A stretch of DNA of 64,000 nt, from positions 9,222 through 73,221 of the forward strand of contig JAWADS010000001.1 in the NCBI GenBank assembly GCA_038998625.1, given 5' to 3'. Below are positions 6,579 to 25,276 of the stretch, piece by piece. Below the pieces are notes generated by a model that saw only the letters and a list, made by a program, of their open reading frames with translations, was not told the DNA's origin and did no database searches. The stretch's first letter is position 1. Each line of letters opens with the position of its first letter. Source of the DNA: Candidatus Aenigmatarchaeota archaeon (GTDB lineage: Archaea; Aenigmatarchaeota; Aenigmatarchaeia; CG10238-14; SCSR01). Both the position numbers and the translations under genes were made by a program.

Positions 6579-7343
6579 TCATTTTTCTACTTCAAAATCT
6601 ATACAAACCTTAAATTTTCTTGGAGCATATGGTAAAACAATATTTTTTTTAATAATTTTAAAATTTTTAATTTTTTTACTAATTTTTTTGATTGTTTCGT
6701 TAAAATCTTCTGAATCAATGGAATAAAAATGAATTATTCCTTTTTCTTTCAAACAATTTAAAGCCGAATCCAAAAATTTTTCGGCTTCTAATGGTAACGG
6801 CATTATTACTCTATCACAAATTTTAAAGAAATCCTTTGCCTTTTCCTTCACATCTCCAAGGACAGGTAAAACTAAATGGGAAATTTTATTTATCCTTATG
6901 TTTTCCTCCATATAATAAAAAGCATCTGGATTTATTTCAATTCCAATAATCTTTTTAACCTTAGGTTGTTTTTTTGCTATTGCTACAGCTTGTGCTCCAA
7001 TTCCTGCAAAAAATAACATAACAATTTCATTTTCTTTGACTTGAGAAGCAATTCTTTGTCTTTCTGTCGCTTCCCTAGGTGAAAAATAAACTTTTTTAGG
7101 ATCTAATCTAAGGAAATAACCATATTCTTTATGAACAACTTCAGTATTTTTTTCACCAGCAATTAATTTCAATTCCCAAAGTCTGTATTCCCCCTTTCTC
7201 TTTGACATTTTTTTCAAAACACTTTTAACATTTTTGTTTTTTGTCATAATTTCTTTAGCTATTTCTTTTTCGTCAACCCCTTCTGGAATTTCAACTATAG
7301 CTACAGCCTTTTCTTTCGAGCCAATTATATCAAAACCAGGCAT
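6579..7343 (-). CDS. class I SAM-dependent tRNA methyltransferase, Trm5/Taw2-like
   Basis: MLFFAGIGAQAV SAM-binding motif and IGIEINPDA; size and layout like archaeal Trm5/Taw2. Confidence 0.55.
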   Translation of the reverse strand: MPGFDIIGSKEKAVAIVEIPEGVDEKEIAKEIMTKNKNVKSVLKKMSKRKGEYRLWELKLIAGEKNTEVVHKEYGYFLRLDPKKVYFSPREATERQRIASQVKENEIVMLFFAGIGAQAVAIAKKQPKVKKIIGIEINPDAFYYMEENIRINKISHLVLPVLGDVKEKAKDFFKICDRVIMPLPLEAEKFLDSALNCLKEKGIIHFYSIDSEDFNETIKKISKKIKNFKIIKKNIVLPYAPRKFKVCIDFEVEK

Positions 7344-7405
7344 GGCATCACCTTACAAGAATTGCAATAATTGTTTTGTCATCATTGTATGATTGAGGTT
7401 TTTCG

Positions 7406-7777
7406 TTAATGAGATACTGTTAATTTTTTTATTTTATTTTCTTCTATTAAAAAGAGGGAGCTATCGCCAATATGCGCCATTTCTAAATTATTATTTTTAA
7501 TATTTACTGCAGTCAAAGTTGTATAACCAATTTTTGGGTTTTTCTTTTTTTCTTCTATAATTTTTATATTGGTTTTTTTAATTGCTTCATGCAAGTTGTT
7601 TTTAAAAAATTTATTAAGATAATTTAAAGATTTGATGGCCGCTTCTCTTCCTCCAGGGGGATTTGATACTCCGTCTGCTACAGCAAACAAATTTTTTCTT
7701 TTATTTATTAAGAAAGCATCTTCATTTTCTTTATGGTCTTTTCCTTTAACTGATTTACCGTAAATTTGAAGTTTCAA
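7406..7777 (-). CDS. PP2C-family protein phosphatase-like, short or truncated
   Basis: AFLINKRKNLFAVADGVSNPPGG matches PP2C motif 1-2 (xxD...FxVxDG); only 123 aa against about 240 aa expected. Confidence 0.4.
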   Translation of the reverse strand: MKLQIYGKSVKGKDHKENEDAFLINKRKNLFAVADGVSNPPGGREAAIKSLNYLNKFFKNNLHEAIKKTNIKIIEEKKKNPKIGYTTLTAVNIKNNNLEMAHIGDSSLFLIEENKIKKLTVSH

Positions 7778-7842
7778 AACAATCCCGGAAATATTTTGTT
7801 AATATTTATTTTTATTTTAAGATTAGGATATCTTAGATAGAT

Positions 7843-8598
7843 ATGTTAACCTTTATTGGTCTTGGCCTTTTCGATGAAAAAGATATTAGTTTGAGGTCTA
7901 TAGAGGAAGCAAAGAAAGCAGATAAAATTTACATCGAGCTTTATACTAGCAAATGGTTTGGTAGTTTAGAAAATTTGGAAAAAATTGTTGGCAAAAAAAT
8001 AATTGTTGCTAAGAGAAGTGATTTGGAAGAAAATTCTGAAAAAATTTTAGAAGAGGCAAAAAAATCAAAAATTATAATATTTGTTTTGGGCGATCCTTTA
8101 GTAGCCACTACCCACTCTTCTTTAATTTTAGAAGCAAGGAAAAGGGGTATAAAAACCAAAATAATTCATAATGCATCAATTATTTCAGCCATAGGTGAAA
8201 CTGGTTTACATTTACAAAAATTTGGTCCTTATGTTACTATTCCTTTTCCTGAAAGGACAAAAGGTAAATTGCCAGAGTCAATCTATGATGTAATTAAAAT
8301 GAATAAAATTAGAGGCTTGCATACCCTTTGTCTTTTAGATATAAATGAAAATAAAGTTATGAACCCAAAGGAAGCTATTAAAATTTTGTTGGATTTAGAA
8401 AATTTGAAAAAAGAAAATTTGATTACCAAAGATTCAAAAATTATAGTTTTATCTAAGGCAGGAAGCGATGACTCAAAAATTGTTTTTAACACAATAAAAA
8501 ACCTTCAAAGAATGGAAATAAATACCCCAGCAGTTTTAATTATTCCAGGAAAATTGCATTTTACTGAAGAAGAATTCCTCTCTTCGTTTAAAATATAA
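7843..8598 (+). CDS. dph5: diphthine synthase (Dph5)
   Basis: MLTFIGLGL N-terminus, tetrapyrrole-methylase fold motifs (VLGDPLVATTH), about 250 aa. Confidence 0.85.
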   Translation: MLTFIGLGLFDEKDISLRSIEEAKKADKIYIELYTSKWFGSLENLEKIVGKKIIVAKRSDLEENSEKILEEAKKSKIIIFVLGDPLVATTHSSLILEARKRGIKTKIIHNASIISAIGETGLHLQKFGPYVTIPFPERTKGKLPESIYDVIKMNKIRGLHTLCLLDINENKVMNPKEAIKILLDLENLKKENLITKDSKIIVLSKAGSDDSKIVFNTIKNLQRMEINTPAVLIIPGKLHFTEEEFLSSFKI

Positions 8599-8600
8599 AT

Positions 8601-9146
8601 TTATTCACTCCTCCTAATAACACTAGCAGCTATAATTATCAGTACAATAAAAATCAAAACGCCAGAAGCTATAACTATAACATCAGCTGGTGTACCTGCT
8701 GGTGTCCCTGGGGCAGGTGGTTTAGCAGGTGGTATAAAAACAGCAGTTAGCAAACCAGAAATAACAAAAAGTGTTATTCCTAAAGCTATCATGGCAAAAA
8801 GAACGCTCCTTGTGGTTAATCTTTCAATCAACAATTTCATTAATTCAGGATAGAATATGCTTGCAAGAATAAAACCCACAACAAAAATAATGACCCAAAT
8901 AGTTGCTTGAGTAAAGAAGGTTGATAGAGGAGTGGCTAAGCTTATACCAGAAATAACAGGAAATCCAAAAATCATAAAGGCTATGGATAGGGCCACTACA
9001 CCATTTACCACAGGCGACTCACCCAAAATTTTCGATTTTCGAAGCAGAGCGTACATTATGGTAGCTGTTATGATAAAAGGAAATAAGAAGTCATAAAATC
9101 CTAAAGAAATTAATTGTCTTACGACAATTTCAAAAGGCGAGGCCAT
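8601..9146 (-). CDS. polytopic membrane protein, paralog family member A (conserved LGFYDFLFPF N-terminal motif, Pro-rich linker)
   Basis: 4-5 TM; N-terminal motif shared with ORFs at 9194, 9732, 10311, 10796 and 12349. Confidence 0.5.
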   Translation of the reverse strand: MASPFEIVVRQLISLGFYDFLFPFIITATIMYALLRKSKILGESPVVNGVVALSIAFMIFGFPVISGISLATPLSTFFTQATIWVIIFVVGFILASIFYPELMKLLIERLTTRSVLFAMIALGITLFVISGLLTAVFIPPAKPPAPGTPAGTPADVIVIASGVLIFIVLIIIAASVIRRSE

Positions 9147-9193
9147 TTTTCTCTAAATTAAATTTGTTGTTCAAAAGATTTAATTAGTTTATA

Positions 9194-9724
9194 TTAAGTT
9201 TTTTCCTTAGGTTCTCTAACAGCATAAAAAATGATCCCGATAAAAAATAATATTACTAGTAAGCCAATAATTTGTTCCATATTTATCGACGGCCATCCTT
9301 CTGTTATACCAAATATAGCTAACCCACCGGATGTTATGAAAAGAATTAAAGCTGCGGCAACACCAAAAACTATCAGAATTGGTTGTAAATATTTAATTGT
9401 TATTTCTTCTTTTTGCTTTGTTGTTATAAGGGAAAGTGTTAAAATCGCGCCGAAAATTAGAATTGTTACTAATATTATGGCAGCCCCCCCGAAAAAGCTA
9501 GAAAAGAATCCAGCTAAAGTTATACCTACAGGGGAAAATATTAAGATGTAAAAAGCTGCAATGAAAGCTATGATGGCGTTAATTCTTTCTGCTTGTGCTG
9601 TTTCACCAAACAACTTTACTTTTTGAAGGATTCCGTAAAATAGGGCAAAGGTTAAGACAAAAGGTAAATACAAATCAAAAAAGCCAAAATTTCTCAAAGT
9701 CTCTATCACACTTTCAAGTACCAT
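9194..9724 (-). CDS. polytopic membrane protein, paralog family member B
   Basis: N-terminus VIETLRNFGFFDLYLPFVLTFALFYGILQKVKLFG parallels neighbours. Confidence 0.5.
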   Translation of the reverse strand: MVLESVIETLRNFGFFDLYLPFVLTFALFYGILQKVKLFGETAQAERINAIIAFIAAFYILIFSPVGITLAGFFSSFFGGAAIILVTILIFGAILTLSLITTKQKEEITIKYLQPILIVFGVAAALILFITSGGLAIFGITEGWPSINMEQIIGLLVILFFIGIIFYAVREPKEKT

Positions 9725-9731
9725 TCAACCA

Positions 9732-10280
9732 CTATTTCTTACCAGGAATTACTATGGCAGCAACTAAAACAACTAACAAAGCTATAGATATTATACCAAT
9801 AATAACATCTTGAGGCAGCTCTAATGATATGCCTTGTGGGAAGAAAGCCGAAGATAAGCCACTGGAGAAAAGAATACCAATTCCACCAAAAACAACAGCT
9901 ACAATTACAACACCAAACAATTTACCTCCTAGTTTTTCGCTAAAGAATTTTCCTACATTTTCAGGCAGAAAAGCTCCAGCTATAATTATGCTAACCGCAA
10001 CTGTTAGAACGGCCACTAAACTTTGGAACATAAAGGCAGCTAATTGCTTTTCTATGCTAACCCCAGCTAAGATAGGATAGCTAAAAACCATAAAAGCAGC
10101 TATCAGGGCTACTATTGCATTTACAGCAACGTTTTGTTCTGGTGGCCCAAAAATTTGAGATTTTCTTAACAAGCCGTAGAAAACAGCTGATGTGAGCATA
10201 AAGGGTAGCAAAAATTGGAAAGCTCCCAAATCTCTTAGTCTAAGTATAACTGTTTCAAGTGGCGATACAAATAATATCAT
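9732..10280 (-). CDS. polytopic membrane protein, paralog family member C
   Basis: N-terminus LRDLGAFQFLLPFMLTSAVFYGLLRKSQIFG parallels neighbours. Confidence 0.5.
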   Translation of the reverse strand: MILFVSPLETVILRLRDLGAFQFLLPFMLTSAVFYGLLRKSQIFGPPEQNVAVNAIVALIAAFMVFSYPILAGVSIEKQLAAFMFQSLVAVLTVAVSIIIAGAFLPENVGKFFSEKLGGKLFGVVIVAVVFGGIGILFSSGLSSAFFPQGISLELPQDVIIGIISIALLVVLVAAIVIPGKK

Positions 10281-10310
10281 AATTAGAATTTGGTAAAAAA
10301 ACGATATAAA

Positions 10311-10772
10311 CTATTTCTCCATTATGGTTTCTAATACTTTTATTTTTTCTTCAAGCTCTTTTTTCTCTTTTAGCAAATTTTCAACTTTTATCTTTTCCTC
10401 TTTTTTTACAGCTTCTTCTAACTCTTCTAATACTTTTGAATACCTTTCTCTCAGCATGTCTAATGTTGGTTTCTTTTCTATAATCTTACTTCTCTTATAC
10501 ACCTGAGCAGAAATACCAAGAATAAATAAGGACAGGAATGCAGTTATAGCAAAAAAAGCTCCTAGCTGAGTTATAAAACCGGCAAAAAATGTAAAAAGGG
10601 CTGTAGATGCAAAAAGTGTAGTAAAAGTTAATGCTAAAAATAGATTTATCCTTCTGTTAAAAATTTTCATTCTTTCAAAAATTCCATATGAAATGAGAAA
10701 AACTATGGCAAAAGGGATAAAAAAATTAAATAAAAAATCCCTGAATTCTAAGCCTAAAATTTCCAAAGCCAT
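10311..10772 (-). CDS. membrane protein, paralog family member D with C-terminal coiled coil
   Basis: N-terminus LGLEFRDFLFNFFIPFAIVFLISYGIFERMKIF; C-terminal EELEEAVKKEEKIK heptads. Confidence 0.45.
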   Translation of the reverse strand: MALEILGLEFRDFLFNFFIPFAIVFLISYGIFERMKIFNRRINLFLALTFTTLFASTALFTFFAGFITQLGAFFAITAFLSLFILGISAQVYKRSKIIEKKPTLDMLRERYSKVLEELEEAVKKEEKIKVENLLKEKKELEEKIKVLETIMEK

Positions 10773-10795
10773 TATTAAAATTTGTTTTTTTTTCT

Positions 10796-11611
10796 TTATT
10801 TTACTTCTTCTCTCAACTCTCCTCTTAACACATCTCTTCTTGCTCTTAGGGCTGCTAAAGTTTCTTGTATCTTAGGTATATCTTCAGGTTTAGCCTCTTT
10901 TAAAGCTCTTTCTAATTTGGCAATCTCACTATTTATCCTTCTCAATTCATCTGTTATCGTCCGCACAATCTCTACTCTACCATATGCAACACTAACACCT
11001 CTATAAGCTAGGAAAAATGCACTAAGAATAAACATTGCAACAAACAAAAGCACAGCATAGAATCCTAAAAAGACAGCAAACATCACATTAATGAATTTTG
11101 CAAATAAACCAAATGGAATTGTAAGAAATGTTACAAGAAAAGCTATTGTTCTAGCAAGGTTTGGAGATGCTGGAAACAAACGCAATTCTTTTAGAAAGGC
11201 ATAAACTAAAATAAAGATTACAGCAAATGGAATTAAAACTAAGTAAATAAATGCCGGCAACCACAACCAATCTCTAGATATGCCTAATATTTCAAAAATA
11301 GTCACCACTATTTCAGGTAATTCGAATCTTCTCCAGTCACTTGGAACATTAAAGGTTATACCTGAAAATGAGGGGAAAAGGAAAACTATAAGTAAAAACA
11401 GGGCAAATAATATCATTCCAATTGGCAATCCTATTTTCGGGCCTTTAATTCCTATAAATAAGAAAAGAATGATTAATACAAAAATTATTATAGTCAGAAG
11501 GGCTATACTTATTTCAAATCCTCCAATATTAATTTCTTGTGCTAAAGCTAATTGGGGCAGCAATAAAATAAAAGTAAAAACTGTTAATAGAAATTTTTTC
11601 ATATACCTCAT
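10796..11611 (-). CDS. signal-peptide membrane protein, paralog family member E with C-terminal coiled coil
   Basis: Signal peptide MKKFLLTVFTFILLLPQLALAQ; internal LGISRDWLWLPAFIYLVLIPF motif; C-terminal charged coiled coil. Confidence 0.45.
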   Translation of the reverse strand: MRYMKKFLLTVFTFILLLPQLALAQEINIGGFEISIALLTIIIFVLIILFLFIGIKGPKIGLPIGMILFALFLLIVFLFPSFSGITFNVPSDWRRFELPEIVVTIFEILGISRDWLWLPAFIYLVLIPFAVIFILVYAFLKELRLFPASPNLARTIAFLVTFLTIPFGLFAKFINVMFAVFLGFYAVLLFVAMFILSAFFLAYRGVSVAYGRVEIVRTITDELRRINSEIAKLERALKEAKPEDIPKIQETLAALRARRDVLRGELREEVK

Positions 11612-11855
11612 AATTTTATTAGTTTTTTAACTTTTTAAATAAATTAAAATTTTAGAAGCAATACCGATAAACTGAAGACTTTAGAGATTTATAGGTAAAA
11701 TAACTTTAAATCCTACATTATTTTTAAGATTAATGCATCAACATGGATATGAAGATAAAATAAAATTGAGCAACATATACTTAAAAGGTCAATGAGACGT
11801 TTTTTTAACGCTAAGCTTAGATTCAGATGAAAGATTAAGATATTGTGAAACCCGA

Positions 11856-12299
11856 ATGCACCCCAGAGACATTTTTAATATTTTATTAATCATTATTAGA
11901 AGAGTAGTAAGTGGAAATGCTATAATACCACCTGTTCGTTTTGGCATAGAAAAAGTGGTATCAAGCAAAACTTCGGAAGATTTAAAAAGTTTACCATCTA
12001 TAGGTAAAACTATGTTAGGGAGGCGTATTTATCCATTTTTCGCAGCATTTAATGCTTTTATAAGAGAGTTATTAAGAGAAGATGAGATTGAAAGGAGATA
12101 CTGGGCAGGATATCATATTTCACAAATCGAAAGATTTAAGGAGGAAGGGAAACAAATGATGAGAGATGCAATCAAAGAATATGAAAATCTGGGAAATTTT
12201 TCAAAGGCATGGTTTTTATATTATAACATGGGTGACTCAGAAAACGCCGATAGGGCTCTTAAACAATATTATCTTAAAAAATATGATATAGAACCTTAA
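11856..12299 (+). CDS. hypothetical protein
   Basis: 147-aa ORF, no recognisable motif. Confidence 0.3.
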   Translation: MHPRDIFNILLIIIRRVVSGNAIIPPVRFGIEKVVSSKTSEDLKSLPSIGKTMLGRRIYPFFAAFNAFIRELLREDEIERRYWAGYHISQIERFKEEGKQMMRDAIKEYENLGNFSKAWFLYYNMGDSENADRALKQYYLKKYDIEP

Positions 12300-12348
12300 A
12301 ACTTCTAGCTTTTAATATTTTAAAAAACAATTTAAAAATTAGAGAAAA

Positions 12349-13170
12349 ATGAATGTTGGGCAGTTTTTTATTTTGGCTCTATTTTTAACTTTTTTAGTTT
12401 TTATTTTACCTGTTATTTTAACCGAGTTCGGGGTTTTGTCGCCTAATATTGTTTCTCTTTTTGAACGAGTTAAAGATATTTTGATTGTTAAAATATTAGG
12501 TTATTCGCCAGAGGCTGCGAGGTTCCCAGATGTGATTTTTACTATAATTCTTCCATTTGGTATAGCTCTAGCTGTTATATTAATTTTCTTAGATTTCATG
12601 CAGAAAAACATCTTTCCTAATGTTTCTCCATCTCTCTTCTTTTTCCTAGGATGGTTTATTTCCTTAATTGCTACAAGATTTTTTGGCCCTATCATATCAG
12701 GTATTTATGCAGGCCTAGGGTTTTATGCAACAGTTGCATTTGGAGCTATATTGATAATAACAATAGCTATAGCATTTAAATTAACTGGTGCTGGCCTGAT
12801 GGGGCTTTTTGTTGCAGGTATAATTGGTGTAATTTTTTCTTTTGGTGGTTTATGGTTTATGGAATATTTAGGATTAACGAAAGTTGGTTTTGGGAATATA
12901 ATTTGGTTAAGTATATTTACAGGTGCTATGGCTGTTGGATTAACATATATGTATGCACGACAAGTGAGAGCTATAGCCCCACAGGTAATAACAGATATAG
13001 ATAGAAGGCTTACTGATTTACACAATGCGTATAATGAACTACTTGCGAAAATAAATCCAGAATTGCCAGCTGAGCAACAGGCGAAATTATATGCTGAACT
13101 GGCAAACTTAAGAACAGAAATAGCTGCATTAGAAGAACAAAAAAGAAAGCTTTTAATTGAAACAGCTTAA
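12349..13170 (+). CDS. membrane protein, paralog family member F with C-terminal coiled coil
   Basis: ILGYSPEAARFPDVIFTIILPFGIALAVILIFLDF motif; C-terminal AEQQAKLYAELANLRTEIAALEEQ. Confidence 0.45.
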   Translation: MNVGQFFILALFLTFLVFILPVILTEFGVLSPNIVSLFERVKDILIVKILGYSPEAARFPDVIFTIILPFGIALAVILIFLDFMQKNIFPNVSPSLFFFLGWFISLIATRFFGPIISGIYAGLGFYATVAFGAILIITIAIAFKLTGAGLMGLFVAGIIGVIFSFGGLWFMEYLGLTKVGFGNIIWLSIFTGAMAVGLTYMYARQVRAIAPQVITDIDRRLTDLHNAYNELLAKINPELPAEQQAKLYAELANLRTEIAALEEQKRKLLIETA

Positions 13171-13802
13171 CCTTCCTTTTTCACTTTTTGTACAACATCA
13201 ACTAAGTTTCTTACACTTTCTATTAAAGCTGGTAAAGTTTCTTTGAAAGCTTTTTCTAAACCCGAAACCCTAGAAGATATATCATTAAAGCCTTGTGTTA
13301 CATCTTCCAATTTTGCCACAACATCCTTTTGTTTAATTAAAGCTAGTCCACTCTGAGATAACTCATTTACTTTTTTAGACAAATTTTCAACTTTTTCTGT
13401 TAATTTAGTGAAGTTCTCATTTATTTTATCAATCTTTTCATTTACTTCATCTATTCTAAATTCAACAATATAATCAATATAGTCTTCTAAGGTGTACTCT
13501 GAGGCAGAAGAAGGTAAAGATGTTTCAGGTATTTCTAAAGGTTTGTTGGATTTTTCTATTTCTTCATAAGTTGGCAACTCTTTTTTTTCTTCCTTTTGTG
13601 GCGGGGATTGAACATTAACTTTTAAAGCTTCGCTCAAAGCTTTATCTATTTCATCTGCAGAAAAGCCTTCCTTTCTTAAGGCATCTATTATTTCAGTTTC
13701 AAAAAATCCCTTAGAAGCCATCTCTTTAACTCTATCAACAGGAACATAGCCTTTACCAATAATTACAGCTGGCTCTTTTTTCTTTAAGAAGGGTATTACC
13801 AT
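13167..13802 (-). CDS. coiled-coil protein, hypothetical (pilus-locus associated)
   Basis: 211 aa, C-terminal two thirds heptad-rich; directly upstream of pilus ATPase locus on the opposite strand. Confidence 0.4.
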   Translation of the reverse strand: MVIPFLKKKEPAVIIGKGYVPVDRVKEMASKGFFETEIIDALRKEGFSADEIDKALSEALKVNVQSPPQKEEKKELPTYEEIEKSNKPLEIPETSLPSSASEYTLEDYIDYIVEFRIDEVNEKIDKINENFTKLTEKVENLSKKVNELSQSGLALIKQKDVVAKLEDVTQGFNDISSRVSGLEKAFKETLPALIESVRNLVDVVQKVKKEG

Positions 13803-13830: not shown

Positions 13831-14214
13831 TCAAGTCCCTTTTAATAGGATTTTTTCTTCAAGTTCTTTTAATTCCTCTTTAGTAACAAATTTTGATTTT
13901 ACTGGGTTAAACATTTCCACAAATGTTTCTATTACTTTTAACTCAGACTTTGTGGCTGCCTTATCCAAACTTTTCTTTAGTTTTATAACTTCATTTTCAA
14001 ATTGGTCTATCCTTTCCGAAATTTTTTTTATCTGTTCTAAAATTTCTGCTGTATTCTCTTTCATATTATCTCTTAATGCTTTTAAGTTATTGTTAAGAGA
14101 ATCTATGCTTATTTCTATTGTATCTATTCTTTGCTCTAAAGTTTTAATTCTCCTTGAGTCTTCATTCATTCTTCTAACTAGTTCATTTGCTAAAACTTTA
14201 ATATCTTCTACCAC
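13831..14214 (-). CDS. coiled-coil protein, hypothetical
   Basis: 127 aa almost entirely coiled coil. Confidence 0.4.
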   Translation of the reverse strand: MVEDIKVLANELVRRMNEDSRRIKTLEQRIDTIEISIDSLNNNLKALRDNMKENTAEILEQIKKISERIDQFENEVIKLKKSLDKAATKSELKVIETFVEMFNPVKSKFVTKEELKELEEKILLKGT

Positions 14215-14251: not shown

Positions 14252-16486
14252 ATGCCAGTAGAATATGAAATTGTTGATAAGGTTTTAAAGATAAATGCTC
14301 GAAATTGGGCGATTTCTTCAAGTATTGAGGATTCAGAAGCTGCGATGGCTGTTGTTATTGATAGGCTTATGGAAGCTAAAGATATTGAAAAGATAATAAT
14401 TTCGGATGTTAGAGATAATGAATATGATTACACACAAGTTAAAATTTTAAAAGAAATAGCAGATGCCTATGAAAAGCTTTTAAGTGTTGAAAATATTTTG
14501 AATAAAAATTTTGGTTGTGAACAGCATGCTGCCCAAAGAGTTTCTCAAATAAAATTTTTAATTTTTGAAGTCTTAAGGAAAGACCCTATTCTTGCTTATG
14601 CAAGGGTAAATATGCTAATAACTTTATTATTAAAAAGGATTTTATATCAAAATGAAAAGGAGCAGAGTTGTAGTTATAATTATTTAAATAATGTTTTATA
14701 TCCTATAAAAGAGGCTTTAGAGGCCACAACTTTAATTCAAAGGGTCAGGCCTTATTTAAGATTTTATAGATTTGGTGATAGAACTCTTTACAGAGAGATA
14801 TTTTTCCCCATCGTCAGACCTAGCTTTATGCAAACAAGCTTTAAGATTAAAATTCCCTTTGGCTCAGAGCTTGTTGATAAATATTACATTCTTGACGATA
14901 CATTGGTGCAAGTATTTAAAGTTCCTGGAAACGTTAGATATTTGTATCTAATTATTCCACCAGAATTTAGGCTTTCGGAGGAAGATTATAAAGTTCTTGA
15001 TTTAGCTAGAAAATATTTAGTGGAGCACAAACCTTTAGAAGAAATTACTGAGCCAGAAAAAACTAGAGAAATTTTTATAGCCTATGGAAAAGATTTAATA
15101 AAAAACATAATTAGAGATTTGGGGTTGAAGGTAAGTGAAAAGATTGATACTTTAGCTTCGATATTGGCTAGATATACTGCTGGTTTTGGTGTATTAGAGT
15201 TATTGTTATCAGATGAAAAAGTTCAAGATGTGGTTATTAATTCACCTATAGGTTCTAATCCTATTTATATTTATCATTCAGATTTTGAAGAATGCGAAAC
15301 CAATTTAATCCCTAGTTTGCAAGATGCTGAAAGTTGGGCAACACGTTTTAGATTATATTCTGGTAGACCTTTAGATGAAGCAAATCCTGTTTTAGACACA
15401 GAACTCAATTTACCTTGGGGCAGAGCTAGGGTAGCAGCAATAACAAAGACATTGTCCCCTTATGGTCTAGCTTTTGCTTTTAGAAGGCATAGAGAAAGGC
15501 CATGGACCTTTCCTTTATTTATGAAAGTAAAATATTTTGACCCATTGTTTGCTGGCCTAATGAGCTTTATCATCGACGGCGGAAGGTCTTTATTAATTGC
15601 TGGTGGTCGTAGCTCGGGTAAAACTTCTCTGCTAAACGCTTGTATGCTAGAGATAATGAGAAAGTTCAGAATAATTGTACAAGAAGATACTTTAGAGTTA
15701 AATGTACCTCTAATGATACAACTTGGTTATAATGTACAAAGATTGAAATCTCGCTCTGTAATTACAAAGGTTGAAATAGAGCTACCTCCAGATGAAGCTT
15801 TAAGGACTGCCCTAAGGCTTGGAGATTCTGCTTTAATTGTGGGTGAAGTAAGGTCTTCGGAAAGCGTTGCTTTGTTTGAGGCTATGAGGATCGGTGCCTT
15901 AGCCCATACAGTTGCAGGAACAATACATGGTGAATCAGCTTATGGAGTTTATGATAGGGTTGTTAATGATTTAGGAGTTAAGCCCACAAGTTTTAAGGCA
16001 ATAGATTTAATTGTTTTATCTAATATGTTGCGCTCACCAGATGGATTGCATAGATTCAGAAGGGTTGTTGAGGTTACTGAATTAAGAAAGAAATGGAAAG
16101 AAGATCCTTTAGAAGAGGGAGCTTTTGTTAATTTAATGGAATATTCAGCTAAAGAAGATAGGCTTAAACCAACTGATATTTTAATTTATGGTGAATCAGA
16201 AATTCTAAATGAAATAGCTAAAAGAGTTAGAGAATGGAAAGGAGCTTGGGATTTGGTCTGGGAAAATATTTTACTAAGAGCCAAAATTAAACAGGCTATG
16301 GTTAATTTTGCAGAAAAATTAAATAGACCAGAAATTTTAGAGGCAGATTGGGTTGTAGATAGCAATGAAGTATTTCATTTAATTTCCGATCAAGTTTTAC
16401 AGGAAGTTGGAAGCTTAGATTCAAAGTTGATTTATGAAAGATGGTTAGCTTATTTCAAAGAAAAATTAAAAGCTAGAATTAAATAA
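14252..16486 (+). CDS. type II/IV secretion-system ATPase (FlaI/TadA/PilB family) with roughly 430-aa N-terminal extension
   Basis: Walker A LIAGGRSSGKTS; Asp box IIVQEDTLEL; Walker B/His box LGDSALIVGEVRSSE...LAHTVAGTIHGES. Confidence 0.8.
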   Translation: MPVEYEIVDKVLKINARNWAISSSIEDSEAAMAVVIDRLMEAKDIEKIIISDVRDNEYDYTQVKILKEIADAYEKLLSVENILNKNFGCEQHAAQRVSQIKFLIFEVLRKDPILAYARVNMLITLLLKRILYQNEKEQSCSYNYLNNVLYPIKEALEATTLIQRVRPYLRFYRFGDRTLYREIFFPIVRPSFMQTSFKIKIPFGSELVDKYYILDDTLVQVFKVPGNVRYLYLIIPPEFRLSEEDYKVLDLARKYLVEHKPLEEITEPEKTREIFIAYGKDLIKNIIRDLGLKVSEKIDTLASILARYTAGFGVLELLLSDEKVQDVVINSPIGSNPIYIYHSDFEECETNLIPSLQDAESWATRFRLYSGRPLDEANPVLDTELNLPWGRARVAAITKTLSPYGLAFAFRRHRERPWTFPLFMKVKYFDPLFAGLMSFIIDGGRSLLIAGGRSSGKTSLLNACMLEIMRKFRIIVQEDTLELNVPLMIQLGYNVQRLKSRSVITKVEIELPPDEALRTALRLGDSALIVGEVRSSESVALFEAMRIGALAHTVAGTIHGESAYGVYDRVVNDLGVKPTSFKAIDLIVLSNMLRSPDGLHRFRRVVEVTELRKKWKEDPLEEGAFVNLMEYSAKEDRLKPTDILIYGESEILNEIAKRVREWKGAWDLVWENILLRAKIKQAMVNFAEKLNRPEILEADWVVDSNEVFHLISDQVLQEVGSLDSKLIYERWLAYFKEKLKARIK

Positions 16487-16518: not shown

Positions 16519-18468
16519 ATGTATGAGAAAGAAAAGAGTCATTTTAGAAAAGAGAAAAAGATATTAATCTACGAAAAATTGTGCAGTATTTTTAACAATT
16601 TCCCTTCCATTATTCCTAATTATTTTAAAAGGAAATATGATGAAGCAATAATTTTTTCACATATCGATGTTAATTCAAATAGTGCTTTTTGGTTAGGAAT
16701 AACAATACCTATTCTTATATTAGCTATACCTTCCTTGATATTAAGTCTTTTCAATTTATTATCTCCTTCGATTTTTTTGGCCTTTGTCTTTTCGGCAGCT
16801 TATTCTTCATATTATTTCTTAAGCTTTCCTTTGAACTATGCTACTGAATTTAGGTTAAAGGCCACTTCAGAAATGGTTTTATGTGTAAATTATATGGTAA
16901 TAAGTCTGAGAATTTCTCCGAATTTAGAAAATGCTATAAAATTTGCCTCTGAAAATTTAAAGAGTGCATTGGGCTACGATTTGAGAATGGTTTTGTGGAA
17001 TGTCTATACAGGAAAATATTATTCTACCCAAGAAGGTTTTGATCATTTTATTAACAAATGGAAAAGGGAAAACGAAGAATTTGCAGAAGCCTTAACTCTG
17101 TTAAAATCTGCAGTTTTTAAAACTGCTGAAGAAAGGGAAAGGTTTTTATCTAATGCATTAAGAGTGATAATTGACGGATCCAAAACAAGGATTAAAAAAT
17201 ACTCAAGAGAATTAAGGGCTCCAATTGGTGCAGTAAATGCTCTTGGCATATTGCTTCCAGCTTTAGGTCTCGTTTTGATTTCTGTTTTTGCTTTTTTCCT
17301 ACCTTTTAAAATTCCAGCCATTTCTTTTGTTTTAGTTTTTAATTTGATTATACCGGTTATAATTTATTCTTTGTTGAATAACATCCTTTCTAAAAGACCA
17401 TTTTCCTTTCCAGTACCAGATATAACAATTCATCCAAAGTTCAAAAAAGAAAAAACAATTTTGAAAGGAATAATTTCTCTATTACCTTTTATAGCTTTCT
17501 TATCTTATTCTATTCTATCTTTAAGCAGATTACAGAAAGGAGATTTTTTAGGAGAATTAATTTATTCTTTGTTAATAATACTCGGCTTAGCTTTTTCTAT
17601 CATCTTATATGTTTTGTTAATCCATTATCCAAAACTCAAATTAAGGAATGAAATTGAATCTATTGAGTCTGAATTTCCCGATGCTTTATATCAATTGAGC
17701 TTTCAATTAGAAAAAGGATTGCCTATGGAGAGCGCCATTGAATCAATTTTACCTAGAATTAAAACATTACATGTTAAAAATTTCCTTAAAAAAATTAGGG
17801 AAAATATATTAACTTTAGGGCTTACGTTTGAAAGTGCCATTTTCGATAAAAAGTTGGGCGCTATATACTATTTTCCTTCTAAACTTTTAGAAAGTATAAT
17901 GGGCATGGTAGCTAGCATTATGAAAAAAGGTCTAAAAGAAGTATCTAGTTCTATGAGAACTGTATCCAAATATTTATTGGACACTCAAGATGTAATGGAA
18001 AATTTTAGGGATATTTTGAGCGAGTCTGTGGCAGAAATGACCATTCAAAAATATTTACTTTTTCCCATCGTTTCTGCTGTAATAATTGCAATAATTGCGA
18101 TGATATTTCAAGTTTTCTTTATTTTAGGAAATCTGTCAGAAAAATTTATTAAGGGATTAGAAGTGCCTACCGATGTAGGGGAAATAATAAGTGAAGAAAT
18201 AATGTTCGGGTTTTTAAATCTGTCTAATGTTGTGCCTACTTATCAAATTCAGCTGATTGTCGGGTTTTATTTGATTGAGATGATTTTTATTTTATCTTCG
18301 ACTCAAATTATAATTAGCAGAGGAGATGATGTAATATTAAAAAGCGTAGACTTAATGAAGAGTTTAATTGTTGCCATGAGCATTTATTCTTTAGCTTCAA
18401 TCCTATTTTACATAGCTTTTTCTGGTTTAGCTTCTTCTGTCGTCACCAATCTGGGGCAAGTAGGATAG
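16519..18468 (+). CDS. type IV pilus/archaellum assembly platform membrane protein (FlaJ/TadC/PilC-like)
   Basis: 649-aa polytopic membrane protein immediately downstream of secretion ATPase; two TM-bundle regions separated by cytoplasmic domains as in FlaJ. Confidence 0.65.
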   Translation: MYEKEKSHFRKEKKILIYEKLCSIFNNFPSIIPNYFKRKYDEAIIFSHIDVNSNSAFWLGITIPILILAIPSLILSLFNLLSPSIFLAFVFSAAYSSYYFLSFPLNYATEFRLKATSEMVLCVNYMVISLRISPNLENAIKFASENLKSALGYDLRMVLWNVYTGKYYSTQEGFDHFINKWKRENEEFAEALTLLKSAVFKTAEERERFLSNALRVIIDGSKTRIKKYSRELRAPIGAVNALGILLPALGLVLISVFAFFLPFKIPAISFVLVFNLIIPVIIYSLLNNILSKRPFSFPVPDITIHPKFKKEKTILKGIISLLPFIAFLSYSILSLSRLQKGDFLGELIYSLLIILGLAFSIILYVLLIHYPKLKLRNEIESIESEFPDALYQLSFQLEKGLPMESAIESILPRIKTLHVKNFLKKIRENILTLGLTFESAIFDKKLGAIYYFPSKLLESIMGMVASIMKKGLKEVSSSMRTVSKYLLDTQDVMENFRDILSESVAEMTIQKYLLFPIVSAVIIAIIAMIFQVFFILGNLSEKFIKGLEVPTDVGEIISEEIMFGFLNLSNVVPTYQIQLIVGFYLIEMIFILSSTQIIISRGDDVILKSVDLMKSLIVAMSIYSLASILFYIAFSGLASSVVTNLGQVG

Positions 18469-18806: not shown

Positions 18807-19472
18807 ATGGCTACAGGTTTATCTTGGTCTGTTTCGCTTATCTTTGCAATTATCATTGGAATATTGATTGTTTTATTAATTTTTGGCGTGGGGAGTGCAC
18901 TAATTCCGGCTATTGCCGATAGAGCTATGAGCTTTGTGTGTAATTTTCCCATCATGGATGTTACTATTTGTAAAGCTTATGCTGAGAAAAGAACTGTGGA
19001 AGTTTGTTTTGAAAAAGAAGGGTGGGGCCAATTACAAGAAGGAATAAGGGAAGAGAGAAAAATAACTTTAACTTTTATTGCTAGACCATTTGAGCTAATT
19101 CCAATTTATAAATGCTCGGAAAGTCATCAAGCCGTTATTAAAGGAGACCCACCAATACTTTCTTGTAATGTATTAATCTCAAATTCTATAAAAAAGCAAT
19201 TTCGTATAGATGTAAAAGTTCCTGTTGAAGTGGTACGCCCCCCACAGACCGATATTCTAATTATTAAACCAAAAGATGACCCAACAATAACAATTTGGAA
19301 AGCTAATGTGAAATATTCAATCGGGGATAGCTCTTGTGGTGTAACTATAGGAGATTCATCCTCACCCGAAAAGCTGACAAAAGGCGAGAGCATTACTTAT
19401 GATGGTTTAAGAGTAACCCTTAAAGATTACGGAATAGGGGGTTTCATTTTTGAATTGTTTTATTCTAAATAA
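18807..19472 (+). CDS. pilin-like protein with class III (type IV prepilin-like) signal peptide
   Basis: MATGLSWSVSLIFAIIIGILIVLLIF N-terminus; Cys-containing extracellular domain. Confidence 0.5.
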   Translation: MATGLSWSVSLIFAIIIGILIVLLIFGVGSALIPAIADRAMSFVCNFPIMDVTICKAYAEKRTVEVCFEKEGWGQLQEGIREERKITLTFIARPFELIPIYKCSESHQAVIKGDPPILSCNVLISNSIKKQFRIDVKVPVEVVRPPQTDILIIKPKDDPTITIWKANVKYSIGDSSCGVTIGDSSSPEKLTKGESITYDGLRVTLKDYGIGGFIFELFYSK

Positions 19473-19509
19473 ATACTTTTAAATAAATGTAAAATCAAAT
19501 TATTATAAA

Positions 19510-19911
19510 ATGGTTTTAAATAAAAAAGGTTTATCAACTTTAACTATTGTAGTAATAGCTCTTATAATTGCAATCATATTAGGTTTTTTAATATTTTCAG
19601 GTTCTGCTTTTCAACTAGGGCGTGGAACGAGTATAGGTGCGGGAATAGGTTGTTCTCAAGTTCTTAGAGCTATGTGTGCAGATTATAAGGAGCAAACTAA
19701 TGGATTATATGATCCCGGAAGATACCCAACAATACTTCAAGCGCATCTAAAGAATATAGAGGATAATTGTAAAAGGGAAGAGGTATATTGTGATCCAAGT
19801 AAGCCAGGTTGTAGAATTAATTTAAATGATGTAGGAAATGTAATAGTATATTGTTGTGGTTCTGTTGGTGGCGACATATCTGTATGTCGGCCTCAAGCGC
19901 CTCCACAATAA
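19510..19911 (+). CDS. archaeal type IV pilin-like protein, Cys-rich
   Basis: MVLNKKGLSTLTIVVIALIIAIILGF matches the class III signal-peptide consensus ([KR]G then hydrophobic); 8 Cys in a 100-aa globular part. Confidence 0.65.
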   Translation: MVLNKKGLSTLTIVVIALIIAIILGFLIFSGSAFQLGRGTSIGAGIGCSQVLRAMCADYKEQTNGLYDPGRYPTILQAHLKNIEDNCKREEVYCDPSKPGCRINLNDVGNVIVYCCGSVGGDISVCRPQAPPQ

Positions 19912-20056
19912 TGAACATGCTATAAGTATAACAGTTCTTCAAGATATTCTGAGATAGATAAAGTATATAGCATATTAGAACTTGTTATTGTAGACCAGAA
20001 TAGCGATCCTTTTTTTAAATTAAAAGCTAAAAATTTGAATAAAATTCTCTATTTTT

Positions 20057-20521
20057 TCACTTTTTTAAAGTTATATTTTCTGTTCTTTCCAATGTTAATA
20101 TATAACCTTTAGCTAAAATTTCTAACTTACAATCCTCTTTTCCAACAAATCTTTTTGTCGAGACATTTAATTCAAAACAATCCCCGGCTATCAAATTCAG
20201 TTTTTCTTTTACTAGGTTTTCATCTATTTTCATTTCTCCTAATTGTTCTATTTTGCATATAAAAGGCATATTACAAGATAACTTTTTTATGGGTCTTATT
20301 CCTGATAGCCAAAAACTAAAGTTACGATAGAAATTCATATCTGAAAGAAAGGCCAACAAACTGTCGTGGGCATCGGTGAATTGCATTTCATTTCTTGTTA
20401 AACCAACAATATGGAATTTCAAAAAGAAAAAATTTAAAATTCCAGATAGTAGTATAGCAATGGAAAAAAGTACTAAGGCAACGGCTAAAGAGATTAAAGA
20501 CAGGCCTTTTTTCACCATCAA
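20057..20521 (-). CDS. archaeal type IV pilin-like protein
   Basis: MMVKKGLSLISLAVALVLFSIAILL class III signal peptide. Confidence 0.6.
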   Translation of the reverse strand: MMVKKGLSLISLAVALVLFSIAILLSGILNFFFLKFHIVGLTRNEMQFTDAHDSLLAFLSDMNFYRNFSFWLSGIRPIKKLSCNMPFICKIEQLGEMKIDENLVKEKLNLIAGDCFELNVSTKRFVGKEDCKLEILAKGYILTLERTENITLKK

Positions 20522-21309
20522 CTCACCTCAAAACTTTGCAAAACTAATCTACCTATTTTGTATCCATCAACTGTAAAATCATAAAGAATTACAGGAAAAG
20601 CATCCATTGAGTAAGTTGATGAGGAGAAAGATTTAGATAGTTCTTTTTCAAAACAAGTTTTTGTTGTGGCCAAGTCAAACACATCTAAGCTTACTCTTTT
20701 TCCTTCTCCCACTTCAATAACAATTCCGATGGGTAGGAATCTGAAGAGAGCTTGAAATAAAACATCTGTAATTCTTATATTTTGGATAGCACATCTAAAA
20801 AAGTTCATAATAGCCCCTTCTGCCAATAAAGCTTCGCCATGACCTCTATAAACCCATTTTTTTCCATCTTCCAAATTTAGTATTGTAAGTAGATGGGCAG
20901 TGTTGGGATATGAATAACTTGCGAATAAGTTATTTTCAGATATTTCATCTAGTTTGGTTATGTTAAAAACCAAATACTCAGAATACTTTTTTGTAATATC
21001 TACATTTGGTTGAATCAAAGAATATTTATTTAATGTCTTAGTGGTATTCTTCACTAAAAACTCCTTTGCTCCGATTAAGGCTTTACCTAAATTTATATTA
21101 TGCCTTCTCGCTTCGTTTTCGGTAATGATGGCATGCAAATTCAAATAACGTGCTATATAAAAGTAATAAATCATAACTGCTAGAAGAATCATTATTAAAA
21201 TTACAATAACATCAAAAAGTTCAGTAGTAGCTTTTTTATTAATCAAAAAATTTTTAACTTTCAAAATTTTATCCCTCTCTAATATCAAATTTTTCTCCGG
21301 CTTTTTCAA
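20518..21309 (-). CDS. membrane-anchored hypothetical protein (pilus locus)
   Basis: N-terminal TM; start overlaps previous gene stop (ATGA). Confidence 0.35.
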   Translation of the reverse strand: MKKPEKNLILERDKILKVKNFLINKKATTELFDVIVILIMILLAVMIYYFYIARYLNLHAIITENEARRHNINLGKALIGAKEFLVKNTTKTLNKYSLIQPNVDITKKYSEYLVFNITKLDEISENNLFASYSYPNTAHLLTILNLEDGKKWVYRGHGEALLAEGAIMNFFRCAIQNIRITDVLFQALFRFLPIGIVIEVGEGKRVSLDVFDLATTKTCFEKELSKSFSSSTYSMDAFPVILYDFTVDGYKIGRLVLQSFEVS

Positions 21310-21676
21310 TTAGGAATGTGCTAACTTTATCTAATTTTTTATCGATTCCGTTAATACCAGCTTTAGCTTTACCAAATTTTACTGTAGCGCGCAAATCTAA
21401 TGGGCCCTCCCTTGTTACAATTTCCACTTTATATATTCTGTCTTTTACTTCAAGATTGTAAACTGCAGGAGTTCCATAAACAATATATACATTACCAGGA
21501 AAAGCGGCGCTAACTGTAACTAATCCAGATAAATCCCTTGCCACGTTTTCTGCAGTATAATGCAAAATAGATAATAAAAAATCGGTAAAAAATTTAGGAA
21601 TAGTTATGATTATTATTGCTCCTAATAAACCCATTAAAGCCATAGTCAAAAGGGTTATCGCAGTTAAACCTTTCAT
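21269..21676 (-). CDS. archaeal type IV pilin-like protein
   Basis: MKGLTAITLLTMALMGLLGAIIIITI class III signal peptide. Confidence 0.55.
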   Translation of the reverse strand: MKGLTAITLLTMALMGLLGAIIIITIPKFFTDFLLSILHYTAENVARDLSGLVTVSAAFPGNVYIVYGTPAVYNLEVKDRIYKVEIVTREGPLDLRATVKFGKAKAGINGIDKKLDKVSTFLIEKAGEKFDIREG

Positions 21677-21704
21677 ATTAATAATTTCATTTTTAGGAAA
21701 TAAA

Positions 21705-21998
21705 TCATCTGACCTTTGCTAAGACTTCACAACTTTCTTTGTTGGGTTCCAAAATTTGTACTTTTTCACATTTTTCTTTCACATTTATCCACCAATTTGG
21801 CTTATTTGCTTCATCAAATAAAAATTTACTCCATTCCTCACAAAAAGTGAAGACATGATTAATACAATCCATTTTGTCTTTTTTCTTTGCTTCTTCTTCA
21901 GCCCAACCTGAAAATGTTATTAAGAGGACTAAAATTAGAATTAAAGTTATTAAAGCGAAAAAAATTATCTTCCAAACTAAACCTTTTTTTGTATTCAT
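21705..21998 (-). CDS. archaeal type IV pilin-like protein, 4 Cys
   Basis: MNTKKGLVWKIIFFALITLILILVLL class III signal peptide. Confidence 0.55.
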   Translation of the reverse strand: MNTKKGLVWKIIFFALITLILILVLLITFSGWAEEEAKKKDKMDCINHVFTFCEEWSKFLFDEANKPNWWINVKEKCEKVQILEPNKESCEVLAKVR

Positions 21999-22009
21999 AT
22001 TTTATATTT

Positions 22010-22372
22010 TCATTTTAAAGAAAAAAACCCTGCTATTTCGTTATAGTTACAATATATGGTTGATGCGCCTTCTATAAGTGTCATTATAAAAACCAGGAAG
22101 ACAATAATGCCATATAAATTGCTCAAAAATAATCCCCCTACTAATGATACCATTGGTCCAAATCTGGAAAATATTAAGATGTCTAGAATAAACAAAGCTA
22201 TTAAAACAATTGTTGGCTGCAAAGCTAAAAAAATTATTTTGATGCCTAACGGTAAAGTCCAACCAAAAAGCCTCAATAAAAAGAAAAATGGACCTTCGCT
22301 GATAAAACATGCTAAAGGCTGTAAATTGTTTAAAAAATAATTAAACTGTGCTAAGACAGACAAATCAACCAT
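22010..22372 (-). CDS. small polytopic membrane protein, hypothetical
   Basis: 120 aa, 3 predicted TM. Confidence 0.3.
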   Translation of the reverse strand: MVDLSVLAQFNYFLNNLQPLACFISEGPFFFLLRLFGWTLPLGIKIIFLALQPTIVLIALFILDILIFSRFGPMVSLVGGLFLSNLYGIIVFLVFIMTLIEGASTIYCNYNEIAGFFSLK

Positions 22373-22970
22373 AGGTTACACTTTCCCATTTTTTTTCAGA
22401 AAATATGTCTAACATTTCTTTTACTTGTTCAGATTGAATTTTATTTTTTAACTCATCGAGCTTTTCATCCAAGTATGGAACAAAAAAAGGTGAAAAATGA
22501 AAAAGAAACATTAAGAAAAGTATCGTAATTAGACTCATGGCTAATCCTTTGCCTATACCCTTTTTCATTCTGTTATTGGTTTCGGAATAAGATGAAATAA
22601 AAATTAAAACAAACATACCAGTTATAAACAAAGGGGCTATTAAAACTAAAAAGTTTGAGACATTAAAAATAAATGCAACAAAATTTTCAGAAAAGCCACC
22701 AACAGTTACCAATAGAGATTTCAATATTATTTCTAAATAGATGCTTATATTAAGGGTAGCGTAATAGGATAAAATAACACTTACTGTTATGTTAATCATT
22801 TTCATCATCTCGAAATTTTTTATATTGAATCCCTGCTTTTCTTCTTCTAATTTTTTTACCTCTACACTTTTTTCTAAAGACTTTTCTAAAAGTTTAGAGA
22901 CTTTTTCTAATTGTTTAGCAATTTTTTCACTGATTGCAGATTTGGCCTTATTTAAAATTGCTTTTACCAC
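22365..22970 (-). CDS. membrane protein with N-terminal coiled coil, hypothetical
   Basis: 201 aa; charged helical N-terminus then 4 TM. Confidence 0.35.
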   Translation of the reverse strand: MVKAILNKAKSAISEKIAKQLEKVSKLLEKSLEKSVEVKKLEEEKQGFNIKNFEMMKMINITVSVILSYYATLNISIYLEIILKSLLVTVGGFSENFVAFIFNVSNFLVLIAPLFITGMFVLIFISSYSETNNRMKKGIGKGLAMSLITILFLMFLFHFSPFFVPYLDEKLDELKNKIQSEQVKEMLDIFSEKKWESVTYG

Positions 22971-23005
22971 AATTCTATTTTATTTTCTAAAAATAAATCT
23001 AATGT

Positions 23006-24898: not shown

Positions 24899-25276
24899 AT
24901 GAATTGGGAGGAATTATATAAAAAATATTCAAAGCCAAAAAAGAAAAAAATATTTCCTATTTTATTAGTTATAGTCTTTTCGACTCTATTTTTTCTCTTC
25001 ATATTATATTATTTTTCTTTACCAGAATTTATAGAGCCACAGGCTGAAATTGTAAGTGATGTAATAACTCTACCTTCTATAAAGGGCGAGCATTGCACAA
25101 TATATATAACTGGTCCAAATAATATAATAAAATTATTTTCGGAATATGATTGTAGCGAATATCAAATTTTTAGGTTTGAGATTTTAGATCTTTTTTCGGA
25201 TATTAAAGGTAGGTATAAGTTAGTTGTTGTTTCTGATTCAGGAAATAATTTGACGAAAAACTTTTTGGTGGTATAA
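24899..25276 (+). CDS. single-pass membrane protein, hypothetical
   Basis: 125 aa, N-terminal TM; stop overlaps start of giant gene (TAATG). Confidence 0.35.
   Translation: MNWEELYKKYSKPKKKKIFPILLVIVFSTLFFLFILYYFSLPEFIEPQAEIVSDVITLPSIKGEHCTIYITGPNNIIKLFSEYDCSEYQIFRFEILDLFSDIKGRYKLVVVSDSGNNLTKNFLVV

Follow-up and report, generated by a model that had tools for sequence, protein, structure and literature searches.

In a window of 64,000 nucleotides from a Candidatus Aenigmatarchaeota archaeon (the whole stretch of DNA analysed here: contig JAWADS010000001.1, positions 9,222 to 73,221; archaeal, with a GC content of ~31%), six genes encoding polytopic membrane proteins, designated paralogs A to F, lie beside the genes of a type IV pilus-like machine. 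The question raised by this locus is whether the products of these genes form part of that machine, serve at the cell surface or have a function of their own. Attachment to host cells is the way of life of DPANN archaea, in which a type IV pilus-like machine is among the few conserved surface systems. Based on the gene context across related genomes, we consider that the family, on balance, supplies a DPANN type IV pilus-like machine with accessory or scaffold subunits that sit in the membrane, and that its members are more likely built-in machine parts than surface adhesins. On this reading, the family adds a new accessory set to a known kind of machine. The system occurs in Aenigmatarchaeota as well as in some DPANN archaea outside that phylum.

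One N-terminal core and two subfamilies

A previous inspection of the window from its letters and open reading frames (hereafter the sequence-only reading) had described six genes with a common N-terminal motif, the coordinates, strands and order of which were as noted, and this motif represents the signature of the family. Paralogs E, D, C, B and A constitute a tight co-directional array with intergenic gaps of 7–47 bp. Paralog A (8601–9146, minus strand; 181 aa) is the A-type core member, which is present at every locus and contains five predicted membrane helices, while paralog C (9732–10280, minus strand; 182 aa) is the C-type and most conserved core member, and paralog B (9194–9724, minus strand; 176 aa) is an optional third member of ~180 aa that is present in 0–3 copies in relatives. 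Paralog D (10311–10772, minus strand; 153 aa) consists of the N-terminal core, three membrane helices and a coiled coil. Paralog E (10796–11611, minus strand) encompasses 271 aa by open reading frame (ORF) or 268 aa by gene callers, which start 9 nt later. It begins with a Sec-type signal peptide (LALAQ↓E), after which two additional membrane helices precede the family core, and it ends in a coiled coil. Paralog F (12349–13170, plus strand; 273 aa), the most divergent member, starts with a signal-anchor helix and combines the family core with additional membrane helices and a coiled coil at its C-terminus. Together with F, an ORF of 147 aa (11856–12299, plus strand) lies in inverted orientation; it falls outside the family, produced no family match in a Pfam scan and has counterparts only in the nearest relative (L008) and in two contigs of the window's own organism.

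The similarity of the six genes is far above chance and the family is real. Pairwise blastp comparisons against a database of seven sequences yielded E-values of 4e-26 for A and C, 3e-16 for B and C, 1e-9 for D and E, 3e-8 for A and B, 8e-5 for B and D and 3e-3 for E and F, matches which chain A, B, C, D and E together and attach F weakly to E. When class alignments built from the orthologues of more than 80 related loci were compared by hhalign, A-B, A-C and B-C scored 99.7–100% with homology over their full length, D-E scored 99.7%, and D-F and E-F scored 98.3–98.4%. Between these sets the shared part is confined to the N-terminal 45–70 residues, for which A, B and C scored 96.6–98.3% against D and 94.8–95.9% against E. 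F is the weakest member, being tied to the family via D and E only (A/B/C against F, <1%). As negative controls, the C-type profile scored 0.3% against the pilus platform protein and 0.5% against another membrane protein of the window, while D, E and F scored 8–39% against two neighbouring pure coiled-coil proteins, cc127 and cc211. An origin of the family from the platform protein was rejected on the former value and on the lack of a T2SSF Pfam match in the family, as was kinship with the other local membrane protein on the latter. Hidden Markov models (HMMs) of the classes, applied to all six-frame ORFs of at least 50 aa in the window, matched only A to F, apart from weak coiled-coil cross-hits.

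The notion of a six-paralog family can thus be upheld with regard to relatedness, as established by blastp and hhalign, but not with regard to equivalence of its members, as two subfamilies with a common N-terminal core are distinguished: A, B and C, of ~180 aa and with five membrane helices, and D, E and F, in which the core is joined to a coiled coil. The long, charged coiled-coil ends that had been attributed to three members are those of D, E and F, whose C-terminal charged helical tails measure 61–71 aa with 30–56% charged residues. The Pro-rich linker ascribed to one member is the segment PPAKPPAPGTPAGTPAD of A, which is positioned between membrane helices 4 and 5 when A is aligned to the C model. 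The N-terminal signature of the family reads G-[FY]-x-F-x-L-P-F...Y-G-L-L-x-K-x-x-I-F-G, and its conservation among 348 distinct A/B/C-type sequences (C numbering) amounts to 98% for G19, 85% for P26, 82% for F27, 84% for Y35, 95% for L38, 98% for K/R40, 87% for G45 and 82% for N54.

Concerning the distribution of the family, a search with C retrieved 296 homologues, nearly all of ~180 aa and from Aenigmatarchaeota wherever the source was named, and C itself was matched at 100% identity by an NCBI hypothetical protein from the metagenome-assembled genome (MAG) of a Candidatus Aenigmatarchaeota archaeon. The family profile, searched against public data clustered at 50% identity, matched 1,220 cluster representatives at E ≤ 1e-3 and 288 at E ≤ 1e-10, and the best 150 of the 1,220 comprised 46 A-like, 61 B-like and 41 C-like sequences. 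A scan of species-representative genomes identified 80 loci, essentially all in Aenigmatarchaeota MAGs, and a divergent member (P0273) led to relatives labelled Nanoarchaeota, the taxonomic labels throughout being those of the submitters and all sequences being derived from MAGs. The search with E, the reach of which is limited by a word-index prefilter, returned four close homologues only. Across the phylum sample, C-type orthologues are 44–76% identical to C of the window. The proposal that the six genes arose by a lineage-specific expansion is not borne out by these data, given that the pair of A-type and C-type genes is kept across the whole phylum sample and that the family amounts to at least 1,220 clusters; copy number varies only in the B, D, E and F add-ons and not in the A+C core.

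The sequence-only reading did not recognise a named family, and this assessment remains accurate following a search for convincing matches in Pfam, NCBIfam, PDB sequences and PDB folds. Pfam and NCBIfam scans of the six proteins and their neighbours revealed nothing above the cut-offs, only low-complexity membrane and coiled-coil noise; a profile search against PDB sequences returned a single spurious match (E = 0.25), and fold searches against the PDB with AlphaFold2 models gave generic helical matches only. No homology to a characterised transporter or housekeeping membrane family, which would have contradicted the earlier account, emerged from these searches. In the literature searched, which covered the type IV pilus census, Aenigmarchaeota genomics and cryo-electron tomography (cryo-ET) of DPANN archaea, no description of the family was found.

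The closest approach to a catalogued family is DUF350 (PF03994, UPF0719/YjfL), which likewise consists of small polytopic membrane proteins and as which JGI labels a few relatives. It bears on an alternative in which the family has an independent membrane function (as a channel, a small transporter or in envelope homeostasis) and stands beside the pilus genes through inherited gene order. This alternative draws on the small size and polytopic nature of the proteins, on the conserved polar and Gly/Pro positions in their membrane helices, and on weak DUF350 matches in 14 of 87 relatives (E ≤ 0.01, best E = 4e-6). However, the gathering cut-off of 26 bits is exceeded in only two of the 87, by ~1 bit (27.1–27.3 bits), none of the six window proteins matches, and the registers clash, residues 25–139 being aligned to profile positions 20–132 in one protein and residues 75–179 to positions 4–98 in another. 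Because of these marginal scores and inconsistent registers, the matches are read as compositional resemblance rather than homology, and DUF350 was set aside. As DUF350 is itself uncharacterised, membership would in any case explain nothing. The absence of a match to any transporter family, by sequence or by fold, in Pfam, NCBIfam and the PDB also speaks against an independent function.

A recurrent module around the pilus motor

ORFs were called in all fetched loci and classified by phmmer and HMMs. In the main arrangement, represented by 80 species-level loci, the ATPase and platform genes run in one direction, while cc127, cc211, zero to four D/E-type genes (sometimes inverted), the A-type gene, the C-type gene and in some cases a B-type gene follow one another in the other direction; beyond the family genes lie Dph5, on the opposite strand to them, and TYW2, in the same orientation as them. 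Upstream DNA sufficed for a test in 57 loci, and the ATPase was found in 55 of them. The A-type gene directly precedes the C-type gene in 80 of 80 adjacent pairs, all with gaps of no more than 60 bp and with a median gap of 0 bp, the two genes abutting or overlapping, and the median distances of 31 bp from cc211 to A and of 40 bp from cc127 to cc211 place the family genes in operon-like spacing with the cc genes. The number of family genes per locus ranges from two to eight in this main sample, and in 28 loci the A+C pair occurs alone, immediately 3' of cc211.

A more stringent view of this association is provided by seven rearranged loci (L089, L090, L091, L092, L093, L094 and L095), in which the family genes converge on the cc genes and the flanking genes are unlike those of the main arrangement (for example Cdc6/FEN1, GatCAB/AspRS/translin and ERCC4/helicase/PRC). 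Each of them retains three to nine family genes, a cc211-like gene and a cc127-like gene; a T2SSE ATPase is present in six of the seven, L091 ending before the ATPase position, and a platform-sized gene (~700–754 aa) was identified in L089, L090, L093, L094 and L095. L091 and L092 bear the submitter label Nanoarchaeota. Since seven reordered loci with unrelated flanks keep the same set, the linkage between the family and the motor is more than inherited synteny. The A+C pair, cc127, cc211, a long FlaI/GspE2-type ATPase and a platform protein of ~650–710 aa are thereby shown to constitute a recurrent six-part module. The tie to a pilus ATPase and platform that the sequence-only reading had noted in the window thus extends to its relatives, where an absence of linkage to pilus genes would have spoken against it.

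In the window, cc211 (13167–13802, minus strand) and cc127 (13831–14214, minus strand) are encoded between the family genes and the motor, and both are invariant members of the module. cc127 is a small soluble coiled-coil protein, while cc211 is soluble and is made up of an N-terminal module, a Pro/Glu-rich linker and a C-terminal coiled coil. Residues ~18–60 of cc211 form a strongly conserved helical module of ~40 aa with a double G-[FY]-S-x-x-E-I-[ID]-x-x-L motif, which is retained in divergent loci labelled Nanoarchaeota (L092, 4823–5527; L093, 12152–12772). Profile searches of cc211 against PDB and Pfam returned coiled-coil noise only, with no match to the N-terminal module. In one relative (L088, 6998–7662) a MazE/PIN toxin-antitoxin pair is located between the cc127 and cc211 orthologues.

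The genes for cc127 and for the ATPase (14252–16486, plus strand; 744 aa) are divergent, with 37 bp between their start codons. The ATPase is of the FlaI/GspE2/CpaF secretion type (Pfam T2SSE, 2e-15; FlaI, 2e-35, below the family cut-off; PDB 2OAP, 6e-26; FlaI 4II7, 2.5e-16), its nearest solved relatives being GspE2 of A. fulgidus, FlaI of S. acidocaldarius and CpaF, relative to which it carries ~200 extra N-terminal and ~100 extra C-terminal residues. It is followed by the gene for a polytopic platform protein in the FlaJ/TadC position (16519–18468, plus strand; 649 aa), which has no Pfam match in the window but an orthologue of which weakly matches T2SSF. In two assemblies that carry the same protein (L003, 4548–8330; L004, 2126–5908), the ATPase orthologue is extended to 1,260 aa by an intein with Intein_splicing and LAGLIDADG_3 domains.

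The divergent organisation of the locus lends itself to another explanation, namely that cc127, cc211 and the family make up a separate coiled-coil/membrane system (for membrane remodelling, division or cell-cell bridging) which merely shares a divergent control region with the motor. Consistent with this, cc127, cc211, the A-type gene and the C-type gene constitute a co-directional unit of their own, divergent from the ATPase; coiled-coil and membrane proteins are typical of cytoskeletal and remodelling systems, and the family cluster can stand alone. Yet cc127 and cc211 stay adjacent to and divergent from the ATPase even where the family genes are on the opposite strand, and Pfam, NCBIfam and PDB scans detected no similarity to CdvA, ESCRT or other division proteins. 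We therefore regard a separate system of this kind as unlikely.

Membrane topology and proposed role

The AlphaFold2 model of C (pLDDT 80, pTM 0.48) contains helices at residues 7–17, 20–41, 51–72, 76–104, 109–146 and 157–181, while that of D (pLDDT 82) contains helices at residues 2–35, 40–61, 65–123 and 127–152, membrane helix 3 extending to residue 123 into a helical hairpin on the cytoplasmic side. Approximately 17 of the 348 A/B/C-type members exhibit a Sec-type signal peptide (AxA↓Q) directly before the conserved N-terminal helix, and the mean net charge alternates along the chain (N-terminal tail, −0.53; loop 1, +1.71; loop 2, −0.43; loop 4, −1.18; C-terminal tail, +0.70). Because of these signal-peptide variants and alternating loop charges, an extracellular N-terminus and an intracellular C-terminus are predicted. 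In this arrangement, the short conserved helix at the N-terminus would rest on the outer face of the membrane, and the cytoplasm would contain the Y-G-L-L-x-K-x-x-I-F-G loop together with the D, E and F coiled coils. The parts exposed outside are limited to an N-terminal tail of 17 aa and loops of 7–12 aa, nearly all of the mass being membrane helix, within which conserved Asn and Gly/Pro positions are found.

This topology has a direct bearing on the possibility that the proteins are non-canonical pilins or pseudopilins that join the filament once cut after the invariant Gly19. In common with archaeal type IV pilins and archaellins, the family possesses a conserved Gly near the N-terminus that leads into a hydrophobic helix (~20 aa; position +3 is often acidic or an amide, as in G-F-F-D/E/Q-F-x-L-P-F), and its genes lie within a pilus locus. 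In contrast to those proteins, however, the orientation is opposite, and there is neither a basic leader nor an extracellular globular domain: G19 is preceded by L, F or I at −1 and by D, E, N or S at −2 rather than by [KR]-[GA], no basic residue occurring at either position, and the would-be leader is a helix of 15–19 aa. Instead of a single helix, A, B and C contain five predicted membrane helices, so that four more such helices take the place of the globular domain, and D, E and F contain three to seven together with a coiled coil. PibD/FlaK-type prepilin peptidases cut on the cytoplasmic face, and since the N-terminus of the family is placed outside, as are the would-be leaders that follow Sec signal peptides, prepilin-type processing is excluded. 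Canonical class III pilins are, moreover, encoded downstream. The pilin explanation is thus largely refuted and has only the slightest probability, and the statement of the sequence-only reading that the motif is not a class III pilin signal was correct.

The earlier suggestion of surface-structure or host-interaction components that diversified within the lineage can be judged from the same topology. Variation in copy number (two to eight genes per main-sample locus, nine in one rearranged locus), the Pro-rich loop of A, which is predicted to be extracellular, the fusion of one relative (P0241) to a tail-fibre-type Peptidase_S74 domain and an 806-aa surface protein with Laminin_G_3/DUF2341 domains encoded after the family cluster of L058 could all be cited in its favour. 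Against this suggestion, the proteins offer little extracellular mass and are poor candidates for such a role; the core pair is conserved rather than diversifying, the identity of C-type orthologues being as given above and the signature residues being 80–98% invariant, and both the coiled coils and the Peptidase_S74 fusion fall on the predicted cytoplasmic side. A surface or host-interaction role accordingly receives a low probability. P0241 itself (L088, 10001–10954) is a B-position member with a signal peptide, a C-terminal Peptidase_S74 domain and a coiled coil. Peptidase_S74 is a self-cleaving chaperone domain of phage tail fibres, and its location in P0241 would be cytoplasmic on the predicted topology, which is unexpected.

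For the family as machine subunits, the following mechanism may be envisaged. The A-type and C-type subunits would form a membrane hetero-oligomer around or beside the platform protein, the conserved Asn and Gly/Pro positions of their membrane helices being compatible with tight helix packing, while a cytoplasmic scaffold would be built from cc127, cc211 and, where present, the coiled coils fused to D/E/F-type members. This scaffold could tie the membrane part to the ATPase, perhaps via the extra terminal regions of the latter, and the resulting complex would anchor, position or align, or regulate the motor.

Two known systems are possible functional parallels. In the motor of crenarchaeal archaella, FlaX/ArlX is a membrane-anchored ring scaffold that binds FlaI and FlaH (PMC5019145). 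D, E and F share with ArlX a membrane anchor and a cytoplasmic coiled coil encoded beside FlaI/FlaJ-type genes, but no sequence or fold relationship with the family was detected; moreover, ArlX possesses a single N-terminal membrane helix whereas D, E and F possess three to seven with the N-terminus outside, and A, B and C lack a coiled coil. The genes annotated around the locus included none with a recorded Pfam match of the FlaH (KaiC-like) type. The second parallel is provided by the inner-membrane pairs GspL/GspM of bacterial type II secretion and PilN/PilO (also PilM) of type IVa pilus systems, presumed heteromers by which the cytoplasmic motor is linked to the envelope. The A+C pair resembles them in being a tandem paralogous membrane pair conserved beside an assembly ATPase and a platform, and we propose, by analogy, that it may be their counterpart. 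The bacterial proteins are, however, single-pass with periplasmic ferredoxin-like domains, while those of the family are polytopic and helical throughout, have five membrane helices and hardly any soluble part, and share no homology with them. Because the defining structural features of ArlX and of GspL/M and PilN/O are lacking, the family may be said to work like these systems rather than to belong to them. The text of a 2016 census of archaeal type IV pilus systems includes neither DPANN nor Aenigmarchaeota, and the pilus systems that it covers have nothing comparable to the family module (PMC4858521).

A bolder version of the mechanism, drawing on the near-invariant, membrane-embedded Asn54 and on Gly/Pro hinges, would regard the A/C hetero-oligomer as an ion-conducting or force-transmitting, stator-like module coupled to a cytoplasmic coiled-coil cage of cc127, cc211 and the tails of D, E and F, serving rotation, retraction or the gating of a cell-cell conduit during host attachment. 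We know of no archaeal type IV pilus accessory protein with such a stator-like function, and this version is speculative and very unlikely.

Several points weigh against the assignment of the family to the pilus machine. The function is assigned wholly on gene context; Dph5 and TYW2 are just as syntenic within the main clade, for which reason the neighbourhood alone is weak evidence; and in two related genomes (L058, cluster at 7172–9297; L082, cluster at 8422–10368) a family cluster, a B-A-C trio by best match, lies downstream of DUF72, TrmB and SecY genes with no ATPase or cc genes within 7.7–9 kb upstream, from which it follows that the family genes are separable from the motor. In addition, the packing of the helices in the AlphaFold2 models is uncertain (pTM 0.47–0.48 for C and D), and only in B is the N-terminal helix significantly amphipathic. 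The synteny of Dph5 and TYW2 and the clusters without a nearby motor are what an independent membrane function would lead one to expect. Such a function is, however, difficult to reconcile with the survival of the module in at least five unrelated neighbourhoods from which Dph5 and TYW2 have been lost, or with the operon-like spacing with the cc genes, and we hold it to be rather unlikely.

The module delineated here has at least six components, and cc127, cc211 and the tandem membrane pair, four in all, are without known relatives. Should the family proteins be true machine subunits, they would be the first candidates for an anchoring or alignment complex in an archaeal pilus other than the archaellum and would provide named candidates for motor-proximal densities in cryo-ET as well as a sequence signature with which to spot the system in metagenomes. 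Whatever its function, a family of this size and definition merits a curated entry.

Filament genes and other features of the window

Downstream of the platform gene, at least six genes whose products have class III (prepilin-type) N-termini are clustered at positions 18807–24865 on both strands, namely 18807–19472, 19510–19911 and 23006–24865 on the plus strand and 20057–20521, 21269–21676 and 21705–21998 on the minus strand. These genes likely encode the filament subunits, and similar genes follow the platform gene in relatives. With a T2SSE ATPase and at least six class III N-termini, the locus is a true type IV pilus-like locus.

Two large proteins with class III-like N-termini, encoded at 23006–24865 (MKG↓IS...) and at 32715–33569 (MEKGQAG...), both on the plus strand, may be tip or minor pilins, the former, of 619 aa, containing repeated Cys-rich 'GGTYNP..C.CP' modules. 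After the pilin genes, a protein of 2,468 aa without a Pfam match is encoded at 25276–32682 (plus strand), the C-terminus of which carries a duplicated Cys-rich module of ~45 aa (INTYEACEGLRNQGLDSGC...CCVK). This protein is a better candidate for an adhesin or host-interaction factor than the paralog family, and the adhesin-like candidates at this locus are the pilins and the giant downstream proteins rather than the family, whose members look like machine parts.

Before paralog A in the numbering of the window, at 7406–7777 (minus strand), the window lacks 201 bp that are present in the otherwise 99.9% identical contig L001 of another assembly (12504–13133), with the junction at ~7408/7410. 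As a result, a PP2C/SpoIIE-like phosphatase gene that encodes 209 aa in L001 appears as an ORF of 123 aa in the window, the difference being either a strain variant or an assembly error. Finally, Rfam identified six tRNAs in the window (sites including 38015–38235 and 55123–55266, minus strand), three of which exceed the usual size (120, 101 and 144 nt), presumably owing to introns, while ARAGORN reported two tRNAs only, one of them with an odd AAA anticodon.

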